A stretch of DNA of 64,000 nucleotides from positions 196 through 64,195 of the forward strand of contig CAMDDZ010000025.1 in assembly GCA_945893145.1 (NCBI GenBank), read 5' to 3'. The notes beneath the pieces were generated by a model. It made no database searches and was not told the origin of the DNA. It saw nothing but the letters and a program-made list of their open reading frames with translations. Position numbers and translations under genes: made by a program. Below, one piece after another: positions 5,792 through 14,420 of the stretch (its first letter is position 1; each line of letters opens with the position of its first letter). The stretch is from Rhodoplanes serenus. GTDB taxonomy: Bacteria; Pseudomonadota; Alphaproteobacteria; Rhizobiales; Xanthobacteraceae.

Positions 5792-7159
5792 CTACCGCGG
5801 CCGGCGCGCAGGCGCTGGCCCCAACGCCACGCCCATCTTGCGCAGGATCGCCTCCGCCGCGCGGATGCCGGAGTCCCAGGCGCCGCCGACCGTGCCCCAC
5901 AGCGTTTCGTGCACGGCCTCGCCCGCGAAGTAGATGCGGTCACGCACGGGCTCGGTCAGAATCCCGCGCGCGCTCTGGTTTCCCGGCGCCGCGGCTGCGA
6001 TTGCGCCCAAGGCCCAGGGCTCGGCATTCCATCGCGTCGCATGGCTGCGCTTCACCGCCTTGCGAATGTCAGCGCCATAAAGGTTGGCGAGCCATTCCGT
6101 CGCGAAATCGATCATCGCGCGCTCGCCCTTGGCCGAAAGCTCGCGGCCGAAGCTGCCGCCGACATCGACCACCGCGAGCGGTGTGCCCGAGACATTGGCG
6201 AGCAGGGCCGCGGTGCGTTTGCCGTCCGATTTCTCAAACACCAGCTCATCGGGCTGCAGATTGAGCGGATTGCCGGCAAGCTCCAACGCAATGTGATCGA
6301 GACTGCCAAGCTTGAGCGCCGCGATGGCGTCGAGCTGACGCTTGGGCAACTCGGGCTCGAATTTGATCTTGCCCGCCGCCAGCACGCCGGTCGAAGCCGT
6401 GACGATGGCATAGCGGGCGGTGACGACGCCCTTTGCGGTGTGCACATCGACGCGCGCGGCGGCTGGCGTGACGATTCTCGTCACCGGCGACGAAAACTGG
6501 GCCGGCATGCCCGCGGCGAGCCGGGCGAGCAGCGCGCCGTAACCCTGGCGGCAGAACACAGCGCTGTCGCGCGGCGCCGACTTGGTGACGTCCACGGCCG
6601 AAAGCTCGTTCAGGTCTTTGCCGAACGGATAGGCGCCAAGCACGAACTCGGCCACCGGCTGCCAATCGCCAAGATTGCGCGGCAGCGCTCGCGCGCAATT
6701 GACGTCGGTCTTGCCCTGCGCGGCTTCGGCGATGCCGCGATTGGAACGGACCAGCGCGTCGAGAAAATCCTCAAGTTCGTTTTCTCGCGCATTGCGTTGG
6801 CCGATGCGGACCCGTTGACCGGTCGGCGCCGGATAGACGTTGAGCTCGGTCCACGACGTCGCCTTGGTCACGGGATTGTCGGGCCCGTAGGCCCAGTGCG
6901 CGCCGAGATCGAACGGAACACCGAATATTTTGGTGTCGGTGATGCAGCGTCCGCCGAGCCGAGCCGCCGCCTCGATCACCTCAAAACGGCGGCCGGCGGC
7001 GGCAATCCGCGTTGCGGCCGCGATGCCGGCGGCGCCAGCGCCAATGATCGCCACTTCGGTCTCGGTGGCCGGCGCCGGCGCCGCAAACGCCGGCGACGCC
7101 GCAGCAGCGGCCGAGGCAGCCAGGAAGGAACGGCGAGTAATTGGCATCATGGTTGGCAA
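5792..7159 (-). CDS. Tat-exported flavin-containing amine oxidase family protein
   Basis: Twin-arginine signal ITRRSFLAASAAAAA, followed by the dinucleotide-binding motif VAIIGAGAAGIAAA and an amine-oxidase-like C-terminus. Confidence 0.8.
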   Translation of the reverse strand: MPTMMPITRRSFLAASAAAAASPAFAAPAPATETEVAIIGAGAAGIAAATRIAAAGRRFEVIEAAARLGGRCITDTKIFGVPFDLGAHWAYGPDNPVTKATSWTELNVYPAPTGQRVRIGQRNARENELEDFLDALVRSNRGIAEAAQGKTDVNCARALPRNLGDWQPVAEFVLGAYPFGKDLNELSAVDVTKSAPRDSAVFCRQGYGALLARLAAGMPAQFSSPVTRIVTPAAARVDVHTAKGVVTARYAIVTASTGVLAAGKIKFEPELPKRQLDAIAALKLGSLDHIALELAGNPLNLQPDELVFEKSDGKRTAALLANVSGTPLAVVDVGGSFGRELSAKGERAMIDFATEWLANLYGADIRKAVKRSHATRWNAEPWALGAIAAAAPGNQSARGILTEPVRDRIYFAGEAVHETLWGTVGGAWDSGIRAAEAILRKMGVALGPAPARRPR

Positions 7160-7352
7160 ACGGTTGCGGCAAAAGGCTAGCGAACAGTGAATAACGAAAG
7201 GCTGCGAGGGATGGAAGGAATGACATCACCGTTCGCTATTCGTCATTCACGCCCAGCCCGCCTCAATGAACCGAATGACAAGGAGTTTCAGCTAGATCGG
7301 AGACGCCGAGGTGACGTGCGGCGATAACGCGCGCACCTTTTCGGGGGAAAGC

Positions 7353-8165
7353 ATGGATTGGTCGCTCGACCCAATCGGGCGTACGGTTGCCCGCTACTTG
7401 GACCGGCCTGTTGCCGGCTACGAGCCGTTCACGCCGAGCGACCCCGACGCGTTGCGCGCGACACTCGAGCCCGGCGATGTGCTGCTGGTCGAGGGCAACA
7501 ACCGCATCTCCGGCGTCATCAAGTACCTCACGCAATCGACCTGGTCGCATGCCGCGCTCTACGTCGGCCCGATCGGCGAGCGCACCACCGCTGATGGCGA
7601 ACCGCTGGTGCTGGTCGAGGCCAACATCGGCGAAGGCGTGGTCGGCGTGCCGCTGTCGAAATACCAGCGGCATCACACGCGCATCTGCCGGCCGATCGGA
7701 TTGACCGCCGACGATCGCGCGCGCGTCTGCATCTACACGGCCGAGCGCATCGGCTTCGACTACGACGTGAAGAACATCTTCGATCTGCTGCGCTACCTGT
7801 TTCCGCTGCCGGTGCCGCAGCGCTGGCGGCGGCGGATGATGGCCATGGGCTCCGGGCACCCGACCCGCATCATCTGCTCGGCGCTGATCGCACAGGCGTT
7901 CGAGTCGGTGCGCTATCCGATCTTGCCCAAGGTGACACGCGTCGAGAGCGAGGCGGCACGGCGGGAGATTCTCGAAATCCGCCACTCGTCGCTCTACGCA
8001 CCGCGCGACTTCGACATATCGCCCTACTTCCGGCTGGTGAAGCCCACGGTCGAACGCGGCTTCGACTACCGCGCCATGCAATGGGCCGATGTGGCGCCGG
8101 TCAGTTCGCCACCGCTGGTGGCTCATGCCGGGCCGGTTGCGGCCGCGCCGCAGACCGCGACCTGA
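7353..8165 (+). CDS. YiiX/DUF830-like permuted papain-fold (NlpC/P60 superfamily) protein
   Basis: PGDVLLVEGNNRISGVIKYLTQSTWSHAALYVG block typical of the family. GGGGGA lies upstream of the ATG at 7353. Confidence 0.65.
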   Translation: MDWSLDPIGRTVARYLDRPVAGYEPFTPSDPDALRATLEPGDVLLVEGNNRISGVIKYLTQSTWSHAALYVGPIGERTTADGEPLVLVEANIGEGVVGVPLSKYQRHHTRICRPIGLTADDRARVCIYTAERIGFDYDVKNIFDLLRYLFPLPVPQRWRRRMMAMGSGHPTRIICSALIAQAFESVRYPILPKVTRVESEAARREILEIRHSSLYAPRDFDISPYFRLVKPTVERGFDYRAMQWADVAPVSSPPLVAHAGPVAAAPQTAT

Positions 8166-8199
8166 GATCCTTCTGATTCTGCCGCTTGCGCGTGGCGTA

Positions 8200-8620
8200 G
8201 CCTGTGTCACCGATCCTCCTTGTGCTGCGGACGTGCGCGATCGCCGGGATTTATTCGGCGCCCGGACGCCGTCTCGTTGGTCCCTCGGGAAGCCCGAGGG
8301 GATGAAGCGCCGAGAGGCGCCGGGGCCATAGGCCCCCGCCAGACCAGCGGGTCCGGCACACGCTTGCGAGGCGCGCTGCGCCCGGTTGCGACCAGGCGCT
8401 CGCCTCTCGGCGCTCCATCGCGGCGTTCATAGGCCTCGGGCCGCGCTTGCGAACCGGGGCGCACCGCGCCCTGGCCGTCCAGCAGAGCTCCCTGCGCACG
8501 GATCGTAGTGTCCGTAGGGCGGGGTCCGAGCCTCCCGGGAGCGGGGTTGCGAAACCCGCCCGCAGGCGCCGCGTCCCACCCCGCCAGCACGACGCCTCAT
8601 GATGGCGCCCTCGGATGGGT
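8200..8620. repeat. GC-rich non-coding block of nested inverted repeats (REP-like cluster or structured RNA)
   Basis: Local hairpin CCCTCGG-gaag-CCGAGGG (8282-8300). A long-range 19-nt inverted repeat joins 8301-8319 (GATGAAGCGCCGAGAGGCG) to 8401-8419 (18/19 complementary). TTGCGA-containing units recur. No credible ORF. Confidence 0.5.
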
Positions 8621-8999
8621 AGGACAATAAACCTAGTGGACTTATTTGTTCGATTTGTAAAGTGAAAAAATTCGCGGGGCACGGCGGTTTGGGGACATCC
8701 GCTTCGCCCGGAAAGCGGACCATGTGCGCAAGTCCGGAATGTGGCGATAAGAGACCCATGCAGTACAGCAATAATGATGTTGCTCTGTTACGTCAGCGCT
8801 CGACCGCGCTCCAAGTAAAGCAACGGCAGCCATTTGTGGCGATACATCCCCCAACATCTGCCGCGACGTTGCAGCTTCGCGAACGGCAGAGGTGCCAACA
8901 ACAAAATTCCGATGCCGCCCCGTAAGACTCCGCTCATGACCATCTCATGAGCGAGCATCTTCAATTGGCAATGAGCTGTATTTTTTGATCTGATAGATC

Positions 9000-9458
9000 A
9001 TGACGGTCCACACGAAGCGTCTTCATCTGAATTATACGCCGACGCAACTATTCGACCTGGTTGCAGACGTTGAACGCTATCCGCAGTTCCTGCCCGGTGT
9101 TGCTGCCGCCAGAATTTCCAGACGTAAGGACCAGACGATCTGGGTGGACATGACCATCGGGACAAGCTTTTTACGCAAGCGATTTACAACCGTGGCACTG
9201 CTGGATAGACCGCATCGAATTGATATCAGCAGTCACGACCCGTTGTTCGAGCACTTTCAGCAAAATTGAAAATTCGAGCCTGCCAGCGAGGGCGGAACAC
9301 ATATCGAGTATCAGGTTAATTTCAAATTCCAATCACGGCTGCTGCAAGTTCTGATCGGAGGATTGTTTGCGGAGCGAGCCGCCGAAATGCTGGCCGCTTT
9401 CAAACAGCGGGCACGACAGTTGTACGGCGCTCCATCACTACCAGCAAAGAATGTTTGA
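9000..9458 (+). pseudogene. ratA: RatA/COQ10-type START (SRPBCC) quinone-binding protein gene interrupted by a single in-frame TGA (9267-9269)
   Basis: Both halves align along the whole E. coli RatA length. ...FEHFQQN*KFEP corresponds to ...LIGGWKFTP, so the stop replaces the conserved Trp codon. The same frame then continues to TGA at 9456-9458 (152 codons). Confidence 0.75.
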
Positions 9459-9527
9459 TGGGGGCCAGGGATGCAATCGCGCCCAGGCAATGATCATGCA
9501 GCCGTGCCGAGCCTGAACGCAAAGGTG

Positions 9528-10100
9528 TCAAGCAGGTTCTGGATGTTGGCCCCTGACGCAAACAGACGACATCGCACACTGTGAGCAGCGCCCTGACGGC
9601 ATAGCCTCTGGTTTAAGGCGGGGTTCTGCGCCGAGCGCGTACAGCATGTTTGCCATGATGCAGTACCCTGTGGCGGCGAACCAAACCATTGCACCTCCGA
9701 CAAACACGATGAACGTGGTCCACCAAACGCTATGCGCAAGCACCAGGATGGACGCAACCGAGATATTGATTCCCACCGCAAGATAGATTCGTCGCTCAAG
9801 ATACCAGCGGTCGGTTTGCATGAAATAAAGGTTCCAGCGCGTTGGAGTGTTGGCTCCGAGCATAGGCGTAAGGCCGAATATGCGGAGCGCATTCCCCACG
9901 GGACAAAATCCGGTGAGTGCCACATTGATGGACACAAACCCCGTCGCGGTCACGCTTAGAATCCAGATCGGCTGAAGCAGCAGAGCCAATGCCGCGCCGG
10001 TCAACAGAACAGCGCCAGCGATCAGCCAAACGGTTCTTTCGATATACCAACGGTGAGTGGGAACGATGTAAACGCCTGTGCGGAGCGTCATGATGTTCAC
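9528..10100 (-). CDS. membrane protein with two tandem DUF2892 (YgaP-like) domains
   Basis: Two repeats of the pattern RWY.ER....G....(TM)....TG(F/Y)C, i.e. ...ALTGFCPVGN and ...AATGYCIMAN. Lies downstream of menA on the same strand. Confidence 0.7.
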   Translation of the reverse strand: MNIMTLRTGVYIVPTHRWYIERTVWLIAGAVLLTGAALALLLQPIWILSVTATGFVSINVALTGFCPVGNALRIFGLTPMLGANTPTRWNLYFMQTDRWYLERRIYLAVGINISVASILVLAHSVWWTTFIVFVGGAMVWFAATGYCIMANMLYALGAEPRLKPEAMPSGRCSQCAMSSVCVRGQHPEPA

Positions 10101-10233
10101 CGTCGAAGAGTTAGGACAAAACCGGGTTCAGTCGACACCGCAAAGCGAACGTATCACGGGACGGCAGTTTTCGCCAGGAGGTGACTCGCTCAGCGGTGGC
10201 GCTGGCTCACCGCTGGAACGTGATCGCTCAAGA

Positions 10234-11178
10234 TTAGAGCATCAACCCGAGAGCGAGCATGATGCTAAAAAGGAATTGCAACTGCACAGTCTGAACAAGA
10301 ATTCGATTGAAGATCGGACCGCGCGGCTCATGGGCAAATCGGTAAATGAGTGCCCCCGCCAATGGCAACGCGATAAATGTCGTCCAGACATGTCCGTGCG
10401 GCAGGGTGCGCGCAATGAGGGGCAGCAACGCGAATGGCAGCAACGTCAACCCAGCGTAAATCCAGATTGTGATACGTGGGCCAGCGACAATCGCAAGAGT
10501 CTTTCGGCCGACACGTGTGTCCACTTGGATATCACGATGGTTGTTGACCAGCAGCACCGCTGCCGTCAGCGATCCCACTGCGGCGCCGGCGACGACGGCA
10601 GCTGACGTCAAATGCCCGGTGCAAAGCAAATACGTCCCACCCACGGCACCCAAGCCAAAGAATGCCACGACGAACAGTTCTGCAAACGGAGTATAGGCAA
10701 TCGGAAAAGGACCGCCGGTATAGCCCCAGCCAGACACAATCGACATGACACCCAGTACCAGAATCGGCCAGCCACCGACGAACGCGAGATAGAGGCCCAT
10801 GATCCCCGCCAGCGCGAAGCAAATAATCGCACTGCGATTGACGACGGCGGCGCTCAACAAGCCAGAGCCGGTGGCTCTCGGTGGTCCTATGCGATCAGGG
10901 CCGTCGCCGCCACGCGTGGAATCGGCTGCGTCATTGTGCAAATTAGTCCCGAGCTGAATTAGCGCGCTAGCGACAATGGCTGCCGCAATCGCCCACCAAT
11001 GAACCTTTTTTTCTGCTGCCCAGGCAACAGCTGCGCCAACCGCCACGGGCGTCATCGAAAGACTGAGCGTGCGCGGACGCGCCGCCGTGATCCAGGACGA
11101 CAGGTTCATAACTACGCTCGTCGGCCGATCTACAAACCTTGGCACCGCATGGCGCGATTGGGAAGGCGTGACGCTCAT
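10234..11178 (-). CDS. menA: 1,4-dihydroxy-2-naphthoate polyprenyltransferase-like UbiA-superfamily enzyme
   Basis: NLHNDAADSTRGGD and NNHRDIQVDTRVGRKTLA match the MenA motifs NLANDYGDAVKGSD and NNLRDINSD...GK.TL. About 9 TM helices. The start is uncertain (11178 or 11109); the track start at 11376 is unlikely. Confidence 0.75.
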   Translation of the reverse strand: MSVTPSQSRHAVPRFVDRPTSVVMNLSSWITAARPRTLSLSMTPVAVGAAVAWAAEKKVHWWAIAAAIVASALIQLGTNLHNDAADSTRGGDGPDRIGPPRATGSGLLSAAVVNRSAIICFALAGIMGLYLAFVGGWPILVLGVMSIVSGWGYTGGPFPIAYTPFAELFVVAFFGLGAVGGTYLLCTGHLTSAAVVAGAAVGSLTAAVLLVNNHRDIQVDTRVGRKTLAIVAGPRITIWIYAGLTLLPFALLPLIARTLPHGHVWTTFIALPLAGALIYRFAHEPRGPIFNRILVQTVQLQFLFSIMLALGLML

Positions 11179-11332
11179 CAGTACCGCCGTGCAAGCCGGG
11201 GGCATTGGCCCAGGGTTGTAATAGTTCGACAGGCGATTGTGACGGGCGACGCAGTTGCCCGGCTGCGGGCTTGCCTTACCCGGGCGATTTGAGGAAACGG
11301 ATGCGATCGTTGCGGGTGCTAATTTGGGCAAG

Positions 11333-11348
11333 TGTTCAATATTGAACA
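11333..11348. promoter_or_regulatory. perfect 16-bp palindrome TGTTCAATATTGAACA in the divergent menA / cytochrome-operon control region
   Basis: Read directly. It lies about 155 bp upstream of the likely menA start and about 185 bp upstream of the 11532 ATG. Confidence 0.5.
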
Positions 11349-11531
11349 GACAGCTTGCGGCCTGTGAACGCATCATTCGTAAATGCGGTCCGGTCGCTGG
11401 ACTACAGGATTGTTAAACGCGTCTATACCGCGCTGTTCCCCTCTACCTCAGGCGCGGCGGGTGCGTCGCTCCAAATCGGCCGCGCGATCCGGCCGTCGTC
11501 TGTTAGACGTTACAGCGGGTGAGGTGCCGCG

Positions 11532-12110
11532 ATGCAACTGAACCGCTGGAAATTCATTCTTGTATTGCTTGCAGCCGGTGGCGCGGCGGGCGCCGCAGCG
11601 GTCATTACCACCGTTGAGGTCAATCGCCACACCTCGACTGAGGTCTTCTGCACCTCTTGTCACAGCATGGCCAACTTGGCGAACGATCCGCATTACTTGC
11701 GGTCGGCACATCGTAGCAATCCGCAGGGCGTCAGGCCGAGTTGCGGCGACTGCCACATTCCCAAATCGAACTGGTTTGTCGAGACATACGTGCATGTCAG
11801 TTCGGGGGCACGTGACGTCATCGCCGAGTTTACGAACAGTTTCGACGATCCGAAGATTTGGGAGGCGCGACGCGTCGCGCTCGCACATGAGGTGCGCGAC
11901 CTCATGCGCCGCCAGGACAGCGTGACCTGTCGAAGCTGTCACGCCGCCGCCGACATTCGCCCTGCGAGCGAACGCGGGCAAGCGGCCCATGCGCTGCTGC
12001 GCGAGAGCCGTATGACCTGCATCGATTGCCATTTCAATCTCGTTCATGCCCCGGTGCCGCCGACGGCAGAATTCATTCGCGGCTCGCGGCTCGGCGCAGA
12101 GACCAAGTGA
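11532..12110 (+). CDS. NapC/NirT/NrfH-family membrane-anchored tetrahaem cytochrome c (quinol dehydrogenase type)
   Basis: N-terminal TM anchor plus four CXXCH motifs (CTSCH, CGDCH, CRSCH, CIDCH) in 192 aa. Confidence 0.85.
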   Translation: MQLNRWKFILVLLAAGGAAGAAAVITTVEVNRHTSTEVFCTSCHSMANLANDPHYLRSAHRSNPQGVRPSCGDCHIPKSNWFVETYVHVSSGARDVIAEFTNSFDDPKIWEARRVALAHEVRDLMRRQDSVTCRSCHAAADIRPASERGQAAHALLRESRMTCIDCHFNLVHAPVPPTAEFIRGSRLGAETK

Positions 12111-12129
12111 TCGAATCGGGGAGGATGCA

Positions 12130-13287
12130 ATGAGCTTTCAAAGCACGATACTTAAGCTCCTCGCGGCATCCATTTTATGTGGCGGCATCACGGCCGGAGC
12201 TGCTCTGCTGGTGAGTGCGCCGCATGCGCAAGACGCCGCGCCGTCAGCTGTGTCGCCCCCAGGCATGCTGTCAACTGTCGAGGTCCCGTTCTATGCCGAA
12301 TGGATAGGCTCGCCGCATGCGAGGCGGGCTGCGGAGCCATTCAATCACTGGAACAAGGAAGGTGCCATTCCGGTGGGGTGCGCACGATGCCACTCCACTC
12401 CAGGCTTCCTCGACTATCTGGGTGCTGACGGCACTGTCCCTGGCGTGGTCGACCACCCGGCGCCGGTCGGAACCGTTATCACCTGCGTTGCGTGCCACAA
12501 CACCAAAGCTCGTGCGCTGACGAGCGTGACGTTTCCGTCCGGCCTGACGGTCCAAAATCAGGGCGCCGATGCACGCTGCATGGCCTGCCATCAGGGCGTG
12601 GAATCGACCAGCAATGTCAACAAAGCGATCGCCAACCTTGACGACGATAAGGTCGAACCCAAGCTTCAGTTCATCAATGTGCATTACGCCGCGGCCGGCG
12701 CCATGTTGTTCGGAACCATGGCGCGGGTCGGCTATGAATACCCCGGCAAGATTTACATCGGCCGGTTCCAGCACCGCGAGCCTTATAACCGCTGCACCGC
12801 TTGTCACGAGACGCATACCACGGCGATCAAATTCAACGACTGCGCCGCTTGCCACAGGGAGGTGGTTGACAAGACCTCACTGCACAAAATCCGAGTGAGC
12901 AGGGATGATCGTGACGGCAATAACGACATCAGCGAAGGTGTGGCGCAGGAGATCGATCATCTGCGCGAGCGTCTGCTTGCCGCGATTACGGCCTACGCCA
13001 AGACAGTAGCAGGCAAACCGATCGTCTATGAGATCGATGCCTATCCATATTTCTTTGTCGACACCAATGCCAACGGTGTAGCCGACAAGGACGAGGCTCG
13101 ATTCCCGAACCGCTACAACGCGTGGACGCCGCGGCTGCTCAAGGCAGCCTACAACTATCAATTCATCACCAAGGATCGCGGAGCGTTCGCGCATAACCCG
13201 ACATATGCGGTCGAGCTGCTTTACGACTCCATCAATGATCTCGGCGCAAAGGTGAGCGTTGATCTCGTCAAAGCTAAACGTCCGTGA
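12130..13287 (+). CDS. periplasmic pentahaem c-type cytochrome with helical C-terminal domain, family unassigned
   Basis: Signal peptide. Five CXXCH motifs (CARCH, CVACH, CMACH, CTACH, CAACH) at about residues 84, 119, 150, 222 and 238. GGGGAGGA RBS before the ATG at 12130, 19 nt after the previous gene. Confidence 0.8.
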   Translation: MSFQSTILKLLAASILCGGITAGAALLVSAPHAQDAAPSAVSPPGMLSTVEVPFYAEWIGSPHARRAAEPFNHWNKEGAIPVGCARCHSTPGFLDYLGADGTVPGVVDHPAPVGTVITCVACHNTKARALTSVTFPSGLTVQNQGADARCMACHQGVESTSNVNKAIANLDDDKVEPKLQFINVHYAAAGAMLFGTMARVGYEYPGKIYIGRFQHREPYNRCTACHETHTTAIKFNDCAACHREVVDKTSLHKIRVSRDDRDGNNDISEGVAQEIDHLRERLLAAITAYAKTVAGKPIVYEIDAYPYFFVDTNANGVADKDEARFPNRYNAWTPRLLKAAYNYQFITKDRGAFAHNPTYAVELLYDSINDLGAKVSVDLVKAKRP

Positions 13288-13310
13288 CGATTTGCAGGCT
13301 GGAGATCAAG

Positions 13311-14333
13311 ATGACAAAGCGTTTCGCTGGTTTGGCTGCCGTATTCGGCATGATCGCGCTTGTAGCCACCATCTCGCTTGTATCTCCGGGAGGAGCGCAG
13401 CAAAAGCAACCGGACTCGGTCAACCCGTCCGGGAGCGTTCAGACCGAACAGCAGCTTCTCGATGAGTTGCGGAAGATTCAGGGCCGCGGCACGATCCCGG
13501 ACGTGAAATCCTACGTTCTTGAGCAGCCGGCTGGCCGCGAGTGGCGCATCTTTCACCAAATCTACCTGCATTGGATTGGTGGGATCGCAATCGTCGGAAT
13601 ATTTGTCTTGCTCGCCGTCTTTTACCTCTGGCGAGGCACCTTGCGTTTCGGCGCGCGAGCGGGCCGCACGATGCTGCGCTTTAACGCCTTTGAACGCTTC
13701 GTCCACTGGATGACGGCGGTTTGCTTTATTGTGCTGTCTTTATCTGGCCTGAACATTACGTTCGGCCGGCAACTGCTGCTGCCGCTGATCGGACCGGACG
13801 CTTTCAGCGCATGGTCAATGGCCGCGAAATACGCGCACAACTATCTCAGCTTCCCGTTCACGATCGGCGTGGTGTTGATGTTCTTGATATGGATCGCCAG
13901 CAACCTGCCGACGCGCGTTGACATTGAGTGGCTCAAGCGCGGCGGCGGGATGTTGGGCGGCGAAGAACCGCCTGCCTACAAGTTCAACGCCGGGGAAAAG
14001 CTAATCTTTTGGATCGTCGTGATTGGGGGCGGACTGTCGGCTGCGACTGGTTATTTCTTGCTCTTTCCGTTCTACTTGGCTGAAATTGCCGGGATGCAAG
14101 TGGCCCAGGTCGTTCACAGCGTAGTCGGTGTGCTCTACATCGCGGCGATGCTTGTCCATATCTATATGGGCACGCTTGGAATGGAAGGCGCCTTCGAGGG
14201 CATGGCGAACGGCGAAGTCGATATCAACTGGGCCAAGTCTCACCACTCGCTGTGGTATGATGAAGTAACGGGGATGACGGGCCAAGATAGCGCCCGCATG
14301 CGAACCAGCTCCACAGCGATCAAAACGGAATAG
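13311..14333 (+). CDS. FdnI/FdoI-like (formate dehydrogenase gamma-type) dihaem cytochrome b with N-terminal signal/periplasmic extension
   Basis: Blocks FERFVHWMTA, AKYAHNYLSFP and VVHSVVGVLYIAAMLVHIYMG supply four TM histidines. C-terminal GEVDINWAKSHHSLWYDE. GGAGA RBS before the ATG at 13311. Confidence 0.8.
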   Translation: MTKRFAGLAAVFGMIALVATISLVSPGGAQQKQPDSVNPSGSVQTEQQLLDELRKIQGRGTIPDVKSYVLEQPAGREWRIFHQIYLHWIGGIAIVGIFVLLAVFYLWRGTLRFGARAGRTMLRFNAFERFVHWMTAVCFIVLSLSGLNITFGRQLLLPLIGPDAFSAWSMAAKYAHNYLSFPFTIGVVLMFLIWIASNLPTRVDIEWLKRGGGMLGGEEPPAYKFNAGEKLIFWIVVIGGGLSAATGYFLLFPFYLAEIAGMQVAQVVHSVVGVLYIAAMLVHIYMGTLGMEGAFEGMANGEVDINWAKSHHSLWYDEVTGMTGQDSARMRTSSTAIKTE

Positions 14334-14420
14334 CCGGACACGAACGCGGGCAAGCGGCTCGTTGAGCGTGGTCGCCAGCTATTGCGTACAGGCGGCGGGT
14401 TGAAATGTGATCGCCGCGTC

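Follow-up and report, generated by a model that had tools for sequence, protein, structure and literature searches.

A three-cytochrome gene cluster without a catalytic subunit in Rhodoplanes serenus, a candidate link between the quinone pool and the periplasm

A 64,000-nucleotide stretch of the Rhodoplanes serenus genome (GenBank assembly GCA_945893145.1, contig CAMDDZ010000025.1; hereafter the window) encodes at 11532–14333 three cytochromes that stand together without a catalytic subunit. These are a NapC/NirT-type tetrahaem protein (g1), an exported pentahaem protein (g2), and an FdnI/Fdh3C-type cytochrome b (g3). This trio is a recurrent minority layout, present on at least five independent contigs, of a locus that usually lies beside a formate dehydrogenase (FDH). 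We read it, at about an even chance, as a non-catalytic module that moves electrons between the quinone pool and the periplasm. Coordinates given without a locus name refer to the window, and the three genes, with product lengths in amino acids (aa), are as follows.

11532–12110, + strand: g1, NapC/NirT-family tetrahaem membrane cytochrome, 192 aa, Pfam PF03264 (Cytochrom_NNT)
12130–13287, + strand: g2, exported pentahaem c-type cytochrome of an uncharacterised family, 385 aa, Sec-type signal peptide
13311–14333, + strand: g3, FdnI/Fdh3C-type dihaem cytochrome b, 340 aa, TIGR01583 (formate dehydrogenase gamma)

The open reading frames (ORFs) lie where an earlier note on this DNA had placed them, and its picture of three tightly spaced, co-directional genes with ribosome-binding sites is borne out. 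The gaps measure 19 nucleotides (nt) between g1 and g2 and 23 nt between g2 and g3, with GGAGG-like and GGAG-like Shine-Dalgarno-like sequences preceding. Neither gap holds a terminator-like site, and all such sites on the + strand fall within coding sequence. No sigma-70-like promoter match was found in the 9–15.5 kb part of the window and no FNR/FixK-type box anywhere in it. The tRNA/tmRNA scan was empty, and an Rfam scan of 7–16 kb gave no match. Two other public assemblies carry the same locus, and the gene callers used there picked identical starts. All three genes are under purifying selection, with dN/dS values of 0.09–0.18 (0.15–0.18 in the sole pair with unsaturated dS). The absence of a catalytic partner extends across the window: no molybdoenzyme or Fe-S subunit is encoded anywhere in the 64 kb, and tblastn with the FDH alpha and beta subunits (FdhA and FdhB of the related locus L006) gave no match over the same length. 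By ORF reading, the rest of the window holds housekeeping genes.

The two membrane components are of recognisable type. The g1 product is a tetrahaem member of the quinol/quinone-reactive NapC/NirT family, scoring 149.6 bits against PF03264 (cut-off 24.1; E = 9e-44). Its sequence predicts a single N-terminal hydrophobic anchor helix (residues 6–31) and carries CXXCH motifs at residues 40, 71, 133, and 163, the first of them reading CTSCHSM (CXXCHxM). It falls outside the characterised equivalogs NapC, TorC, and NrfH, scoring below the NCBIfam cut-offs for TorC (114.6 versus 478), napC_nirT (97 versus 310.6), and NrfH (47.7 versus 134). By the same kind of evidence, g3 encodes a transmembrane dihaem cytochrome b of the FdnI/Fdh3C type with intact haem ligands. 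It scores 178 bits against TIGR01583 (cut-off 115.85) and matches Pfam Ni_hydr_CYTB at E = 6e-26. An N-terminal signal-like segment is followed by a periplasmic extension, an extra transmembrane segment (80–114), and the four-helix core. The haem ligands H132, H176, H269, and H283, together with an HH motif, are invariant in 18 homologues. For both proteins the first description was accurate: a membrane-anchored NapC/NirT/NrfH-type protein with four CXXCH motifs, and an FdnI-type protein with four transmembrane histidines and an exported N-terminal extension.

The central component, g2, is the least familiar. It contains exactly five CXXCH motifs (residues 84, 119, 150, 222, and 238) and no CXXCK, as the earlier note had it. 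An alignment of 129 modules drawn from more than 100 loci keeps all five motifs invariant, and five further histidines (H63, H185, H215, H229, and H355) are conserved at 97–100%. Each module has 10 cysteines with none to spare, and CXXCK occurs in 0 of the 129. Because five CXXCH motifs are matched by exactly five additional near-invariant histidines and CXXCK is lacking, all five haems appear to be bis-His ligated, the pairing of histidine with haem being read from conservation and not from a haem-loaded structure. The protein is probably not an enzyme, given a pattern of bis-His electron-transfer haems with no open catalytic haem.

Annotation of g2 and its relatives gives little to go on. 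Pfam matches are limited to generic c3/c7 families, and source annotations of homologues read "hypothetical" or "cytochrome c3 family protein". Single-sequence and profile searches of the PDB found no sequence-level relative, returning only spurious zinc-ribbon S14 matches and one weak match to a nine-haem c3. At sequence level, there is no match to the NrfA, HAO, or MccA families in Pfam, NCBIfam, or the PDB. The family itself is large. A word-indexed search returned 892 matches among 8000 candidates scored, and an exhaustive profile search gave 530, 1321, and 2125 clusters (50% identity) at E <= 1e-30, 1e-10, and 1e-3, respectively. Many of these proteins hold 2–4 tandem copies of the module. 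Literature searches on the gene combination, on FDH3 with cytochromes, and on OcwA homologues found no description of the pentahaem family.

Structural comparison places g2 near known multihaem reductases at fold level, and weakly so. An AlphaFold2 model (predicted local distance difference test, pLDDT, 80.5; predicted template modelling score, pTM, 0.79) was submitted to Foldseek. The top match was OcwA of Thermincola potens (6i5b; E = 4e-3, probability 1.0, template modelling (TM) score 0.39–0.42, identity 14–15%), followed by OmhA of Carboxydothermus ferrireducens, and then by NrfA and octahaem nitrite reductases (ONR) at E = 0.09–1 and TM 0.3–0.4. The fold search proposed in the earlier note thus produced named matches, although all of them are weak (TM 0.3–0.42). 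OcwA and OmhA, the best of them, are surface multihaem reductases with nine and eleven haems, respectively, against five in g2. OcwA is also reported to contain high-spin haems, whereas none is predicted in g2. The C-terminal domain of g2 is helical. It bears two EF-hand- or dockerin-like loops, DRDGNNDISE (residues 260–269, 12907–12936) and DTNANGVAD (residues 311–319, 13060–13086), and 118 of the 129 modules have one such loop or more. These loops may be calcium sites.

Such resemblances bear on the proposal that g2 is a new NrfA-like reductase or oxidase with two membrane partners. An nrfH-like gene followed by a pentahaem gene, with a formate dehydrogenase adjacent in relatives, recalls the formate-dependent Nrf system. 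A helical C-terminal domain is common to g2 and NrfHA, the fold search returned NrfA, ONR, and OcwA, and OcwA itself reportedly reduces nitrite and hydroxylamine. However, g2 is about 100 aa shorter than NrfA, lacks the CXXCK active-site haem in every module of the family, and offers a second conserved histidine for each haem. The family match to NrfA, HAO, or MccA is missing, and the TM scores reach only 0.3–0.4. With ten conserved histidines across 129 modules, this reading is the least supported of those first put forward, and we consider it highly improbable.

Gene neighborhoods define the setting of the cluster. The comparison covered 19 loci from species-representative genomes, all of them metagenome-assembled, 80 metagenome loci, and further look-ups. 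The representative loci come mostly from soil Alphaproteobacteria, including Pseudolabrys, Rhodopseudomonas, and Hyphomicrobiales. The alphaproteobacterial clade comprises 44 loci, of which 38 extend far enough upstream and 30 retain at least 1.5 kb of downstream sequence. In 36 of the 38, the pentahaem gene is immediately preceded by a NapC-type gene of the same orientation. Downstream, the picture is divided. In half of the informative loci (15/30), the g3 homologue closes a convergent fdh3A-fdh3B-cytochrome b operon read from the opposite strand. Besides the cytochrome b, this FDH3 operon encodes an Fe-S beta subunit of 198 aa and a 957-aa molybdopterin alpha subunit exported by twin-arginine translocation (Tat). 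In the FDH-linked loci, the beta subunit scores 340 bits against NF038355, "FDH3 subunit beta" (cut-off 240). The co-directional trio without an FDH operon occurs in 4/30 loci (the window, L022, L024, and L025), with the P0159 contig as a fifth example. Gaps in the co-directional layout of these five contigs span 9–62 nt. One further locus (L023; 1/30) has a convergent orphan cytochrome b without the operon, and 10/30 carry the NapC-pentahaem pair with no cytochrome b nearby.

Across these loci, the NapC-pentahaem pairing is the rule and the FDH-less trio a recurrent minority form. No catalytic subunit accompanies the trio in the window, and the same is true of at least four other independent contigs (L022, L024, L025, and the P0159 contig). 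The earlier note had also allowed that the genes might always be encoded beside a catalytic subunit; an FDH3 operon is indeed present in half of the informative relatives, but not in the others. A one-off deletion from an FDH3 locus was rejected as the full explanation of the trio, as the layout recurs and all three genes are under purifying selection.

A related proposal is that the true unit is the NapC-pentahaem pair alone and that g3 is a plain Fdh3C gamma subunit that happens to lie downstream of g2, the alpha and beta partners being encoded elsewhere in the genome or recently lost. The cytochrome b is the third gene of the FDH3 operon at 15/30 loci, the pair stands without a nearby cytochrome b at 10/30, and the inspected part of the source genome amounts to 64 kb. 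Sequence identity gives a mixed answer. Within an 18-sequence set, g3 is 70–74% identical to its co-directional homologues and 50–58% identical to those in FDH3 operons, and the trio-clade cytochromes b share 70–86% identity among themselves. L107, found after this set was assembled, carries within an fdh3ABC operon a cytochrome b that is 75% identical to g3, so trio-clade cytochromes b are not cleanly apart from genuine FDH subunits. At the same locus (9702–10526), the NapC-like gene that follows fdh3ABC has a frameshift beyond its third haem motif, a sign of module decay. Against a relocated subunit stands the tight co-directional layout in at least five contigs, at dS > 1 and with a g3 dN/dS of 0.11–0.17. 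The cytochrome b gene also keeps company with multihaem partners elsewhere: in-frame NapC::cytochrome-b fusions occur, L108 has a NapC-type gene next to a cytochrome b gene with neither FDH nor pentahaem gene, and in another phylum the cytochrome b gene adjoins decahaem homologues. We regard a relocated FDH subunit as a rather unlikely account of the trio.

The fusion proteins bear on whether the two membrane components work together. A search with g3 returned one cluster with five distinct 506-aa NapC::cytochrome-b proteins from different assemblies (P0168, P0513, P0514, P0516, and P0517). Each consists of a NapC/NirT domain with four CXXCH motifs that runs in frame into a mature cytochrome b of the trio clade, which shares 74% identity with g3. 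The two parts meet precisely where cleavage of the signal peptide is predicted (SAQ|Q in the fusion, GAQ|Q in g3). The fused NapC domain represents a sibling subfamily, approximately 30% identical to g1. Such a topology would be coherent, with the N-terminus of the NapC anchor inside and both the haem domain and the cytochrome b N-terminal extension in the periplasm. To our knowledge, NapC-type cytochromes and FdnI-type cytochromes b have not been described as fused to each other. Because a relative has both in a single polypeptide, we infer that the two subunits, NapC-type and b-type, operate in the membrane as a single unit.

The fusion and its unfused siblings occur in settings of their own. 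At L106, where the fusion spans 8001–9521, the upstream genes encode a Tat-signal FMN-dependent dehydrogenase (FMN_dh) and a c7-like trihaem cytochrome. The unfused sibling cluster of L109–L112 (e.g., L109 606–7673) runs through UbiA, YgaP-like, luciferase-like, FMN_dh, c7-like trihaem, and NapC-like genes to a second UbiA. L108 combines MenA, YgaP-like, and cytochrome b genes adjacent to a NapC-type gene, with no pentahaem gene; its MenA gene (7023–7898) is split into two ORFs, another sign of module decay. The L109–L112 cluster points to a broader association of MenA/UbiA-type prenyltransferases with NapC-type cytochromes.

Distant relatives extend the pattern to quinone-reactive complexes of several kinds. 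Homologues of about 650–760 aa in Anaerolineae, Caldilineaceae, and KSB3 are tandem duplications that yield decahaem proteins, many with N-terminal lipoprotein-like signals. On Chloroflexi-type contigs, decahaem homologues adjoin an FdnI/HydC-type cytochrome b, a CbcL-like fusion of cytochrome b with a five-haem domain, or bc-type complexes. The last comprise a Rieske protein, cytochrome b6, and a subunit IV::heptahaem fusion. Examples with a bc-type complex, or with a CbcL-like fusion accompanied by HmcB/HmcC-like genes, are L068 (5370–8638), L053, L081, and L087 (3886–14510); at L087 5001–6539, the cytochrome b is fused to a domain with five CXXCH motifs. Because decahaem homologues sit beside such varied quinone-reactive modules, the pentahaem module would be their periplasmic or extracytoplasmic partner across phyla. 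By analogy, the duplicated decahaem forms with lipoprotein-like signals suggest an extracytoplasmic role comparable to that of OcwA and OmhA.

The trio does not travel alone. Although the earlier note described the gene anatomy correctly, it missed co-travelling MenA-type and YgaP-like genes and the compositional island in which all of them lie. The following features adjoin the cytochrome genes.

10234–11376, - strand: MenA-type (1,4-dihydroxy-2-naphthoate) polyprenyltransferase, TIGR00751, divergent from g1
9528–10100, - strand: YgaP-like (DUF2892) double transmembrane-domain protein, Pfam PF11127
9000–9470, + strand: RatA/Coq10-like START-domain gene, Pfam Polyketide_cyc, with an in-frame stop, at the island edge

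The MenA-type gene scores 152.9 bits against TIGR00751 menA (cut-off 102.15), a model that the divergent MenA version of the FDH-type loci also passes. Gene callers start it later, giving 291 aa at 10234–11109. It adjoins the NapC-pentahaem pair at most loci, in varying orientation. YgaP-like homologues (71–82% identity) adjoin MenA in L022, L025, and L026, and YgaP-like genes called by Pfam adjoin UbiA in L108 and on the P0159 contig. Within the clade of the window, MenA and YgaP-like genes accompany the cytochromes in every orientation observed (L022, L023, L025, L026, L108, and the P0159 contig). The stop in the START gene falls at the position of a Trp in L003, and the frame runs about 65 codons further. 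Two other assemblies call an 89-aa product, and a full-length copy adjoins the cluster on the P0159 contig. The gene at 9000–9470 is a probable pseudogene or else a read-through gene. Across the six genes at 9.0–14.3 kb (START, YgaP-like, MenA, g1, g2, and g3), GC content at third codon positions (GC3) is 0.59–0.72, compared with 0.85–0.86 in flanking genes. This low-GC3 island (8600–14400, roughly 6 kb) indicates a horizontally acquired unit; no tRNA or repeat was identified at its borders. At its left edge, 8166–8999 is an 830-nt GC-rich stretch with no convincing ORF, tRNA, or Rfam match. Further out, on the - strand at 5792–7159 and 4.4 kb from the trio, lies a gene for an FAD amine-oxidase-like protein with a twin-arginine signal (TRRSFLAASAAAAASPAFA), a putative periplasmic flavoenzyme. 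It was considered as a donor enzyme and rejected because it is not kept beside the cluster in relatives.

These elements can be assembled into a tentative working scheme. The NapC-type and b-type subunits would form a joint membrane unit, and g2 would be a bis-His wire of haems connecting it, in the periplasm, with redox partner proteins or soluble acceptors. The favored default direction would run from quinol through the NapC-type subunit and the pentahaem protein to a periplasmic acceptor. The cytochrome b would provide a second, transmembrane route to the quinone pool, as in the pairing of ImcH with CbcL in Geobacter. In FDH-linked relatives, FDH3 would feed the same pool through its own copy of the cytochrome b. 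Because a MenA-type gene is linked, the pool may be a naphthoquinone. A precedent for such a pool exists in a member of the Hyphomicrobiales that accumulates menaquinone-7 under microaerobic conditions (PMC3237581).

Several observations weigh against this scheme. None of the results fixes the direction of electron flow, and the genes nearby include none for an acceptor, a donor, or an outer-membrane conduit. The characteristic course of electrons in FdnI-type cytochromes b is inward, ending at a quinone site that faces the cytoplasm. At half of the informative loci, the cytochrome b gene lies on the opposite strand within the FDH3 operon, and its product could serve FDH3 alone. The bis-His assignment for g2 derives from conservation, as stated above. 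The AlphaFold2 model of the fusion protein is uninformative (pLDDT 51, pTM 0.41), too poor for judging how its domains pack. Finally, reading of the ORFs across the 64 kb revealed no further gene for menaquinone synthesis, the family scan reaching to about 20 kb.

The direction of flow is the subject of a serious rival. Under an electron-input scheme, periplasmic dehydrogenases or reduced shuttles would pass electrons to the pentahaem and NapC-type haems, then through the cytochrome b to a quinone on the cytoplasmic side. The whole would act as an electrogenic donor:quinone oxidoreductase, likened to HAO-c554-cM552 or to FdnGHI. The family to which g3 belongs (TIGR01583) carries electrons inward, as in the mechanism of E. 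coli Fdn-N. Dehydrogenases exported by Tat are repeated neighbors of the module, namely FDH3 alpha/beta and a twin-arginine FMN_dh (L023 and L106), and L109–L112 match the FMN_dh-c7-NapC arrangement in gene layout. A NapC::cytochrome-b fusion would moreover set c-type haems above haem bP. The order of dehydrogenase, small multihaem cytochrome, and NapC-like protein mirrors hao-cycA-cycB, where cM552 reduces quinone (PMC3701875). However, the trio clade has no conserved adjacent periplasmic dehydrogenase, and NapC/NirT proteins are mostly quinol dehydrogenases. The distant pentahaem homologues adjoin quinol-oxidising bc-type or Cbc-like complexes, and the fold resembles terminal reductases. We take inward, electrogenic transfer to be unlikely, if serious enough to keep in view.

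The presence of two quinone-reactive modules in one operon invites a further idea, in which a NapC quinol site on the periplasmic side is wired to the cytochrome b site on the cytoplasmic side and the pentahaem protein forms a branch. Either a menaquinol:ubiquinone redox loop or a bc1-like Q-cycle analogue could result, and both would conserve energy. That one relative has the two modules in one polypeptide makes the haem wire between quinone sites, already envisaged in the earlier note, more concrete. In a lineage expected to rely on ubiquinone, the cluster has a MenA-type gene and a quinone-chaperone-like START gene as linked neighbors. The idea is nonetheless purely inferential: the START gene is broken in the window, no other menaquinone-pathway gene was seen in the ORF reading of the 64 kb, sequence gives no quinone specificity, and NapC-type sites are not known to bifurcate electrons. 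A quinone-to-quinone loop is accordingly very unlikely. In a stricter form, g1 and g3 would constitute a single transmembrane quinol:quinone wire, acting as a menaquinol:ubiquinone oxidoreductase on naphthoquinone supplied by the linked MenA or as a bc1-independent Q-cycle analogue with the pentahaem protein as high-potential branch. This form, too, is quite improbable; if true, it would be a new way to conserve energy between two quinone sites.

Returning to a non-catalytic quinone-periplasm module, comparison with described systems helps to define what is shared and what is not. In Geobacter, ImcH carries a NapC/NirT-related part. CbcL combines a HydC/FdnI-like cytochrome b with a nine-haem domain and works beside the multihaem ImcH of the inner membrane, both proteins oxidising quinol (PMC6295460). 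The ImcH/CbcL systems of Geobacter sulfurreducens, and CbcBA as well, resemble the trio in linking the quinone pool to periplasmic multihaem carriers without a catalytic subunit (PMC6295460; bioRxiv 10.1101/2021.04.15.440034). Unlike them, the trio holds both module types in one operon with a dedicated pentahaem partner, lacks an outer-membrane conduit, is linked to a MenA-type gene, and resides in a soil alphaproteobacterial host. In contrast to CbcL, g3 is an Fdh3C orthologue with an N-terminal extension, and cytochrome b and multihaem cytochrome c are separate genes in the window. The likeness to FDH3 (Fdh3ABC) and to E. coli FdnGHI lies in g3, which passes the FDH gamma model, keeps four haem histidines, and has homologues as third gene of fdh3ABC. 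The window, however, has neither alpha nor beta subunit, and g3 sits instead with two c-type cytochrome genes. The hydroxylamine/ubiquinone redox module (HAO, cytochrome c554, and cM552) likewise joins a periplasmic multihaem carrier to a NapC/NrfH-type membrane tetrahaem protein, yet no HAO-type enzyme is present at the trio and g2 is unrelated to c554 by sequence. Proteins of the NapC/NrfH/cM552 group run in either direction (PMC3701875). By analogy, the trio would work most like Cbc/ImcH-type quinol:periplasm modules, while differing in components, host, MenA linkage, and the NapC-cytochrome b partnership. Among the three readings offered in the earlier note, the Cbc/ImcH-like one fits best.

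The trio is not the catalytic novelty that the earlier note had hoped for, and half of its relatives adjoin a catalytic enzyme. Its interest lies in the pentahaem module, which defines a large unnamed multihaem family (530 clusters at E <= 1e-30) in soil Alphaproteobacteria and Chloroflexi. This family has neither a Pfam entry of its own nor a model dedicated to it in NCBIfam, and none of its members has a solved structure. Should g2 prove to be only a wire, the practical gain would lie in improved annotation: "formate dehydrogenase subunit gamma" misleads when applied to g3 in this setting, and "cytochrome c3 family protein" is uninformative for g2. The NapC::cytochrome-b fusion provides a concrete, testable hypothesis of membrane partnership. 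The module is found consistently with quinone-reactive membrane proteins and, in Alphaproteobacteria, also with MenA-type genes and FDH3. Together, these features suggest that abundant uncultured soil bacteria have a respiratory branch that has been overlooked and may depend on a naphthoquinone.

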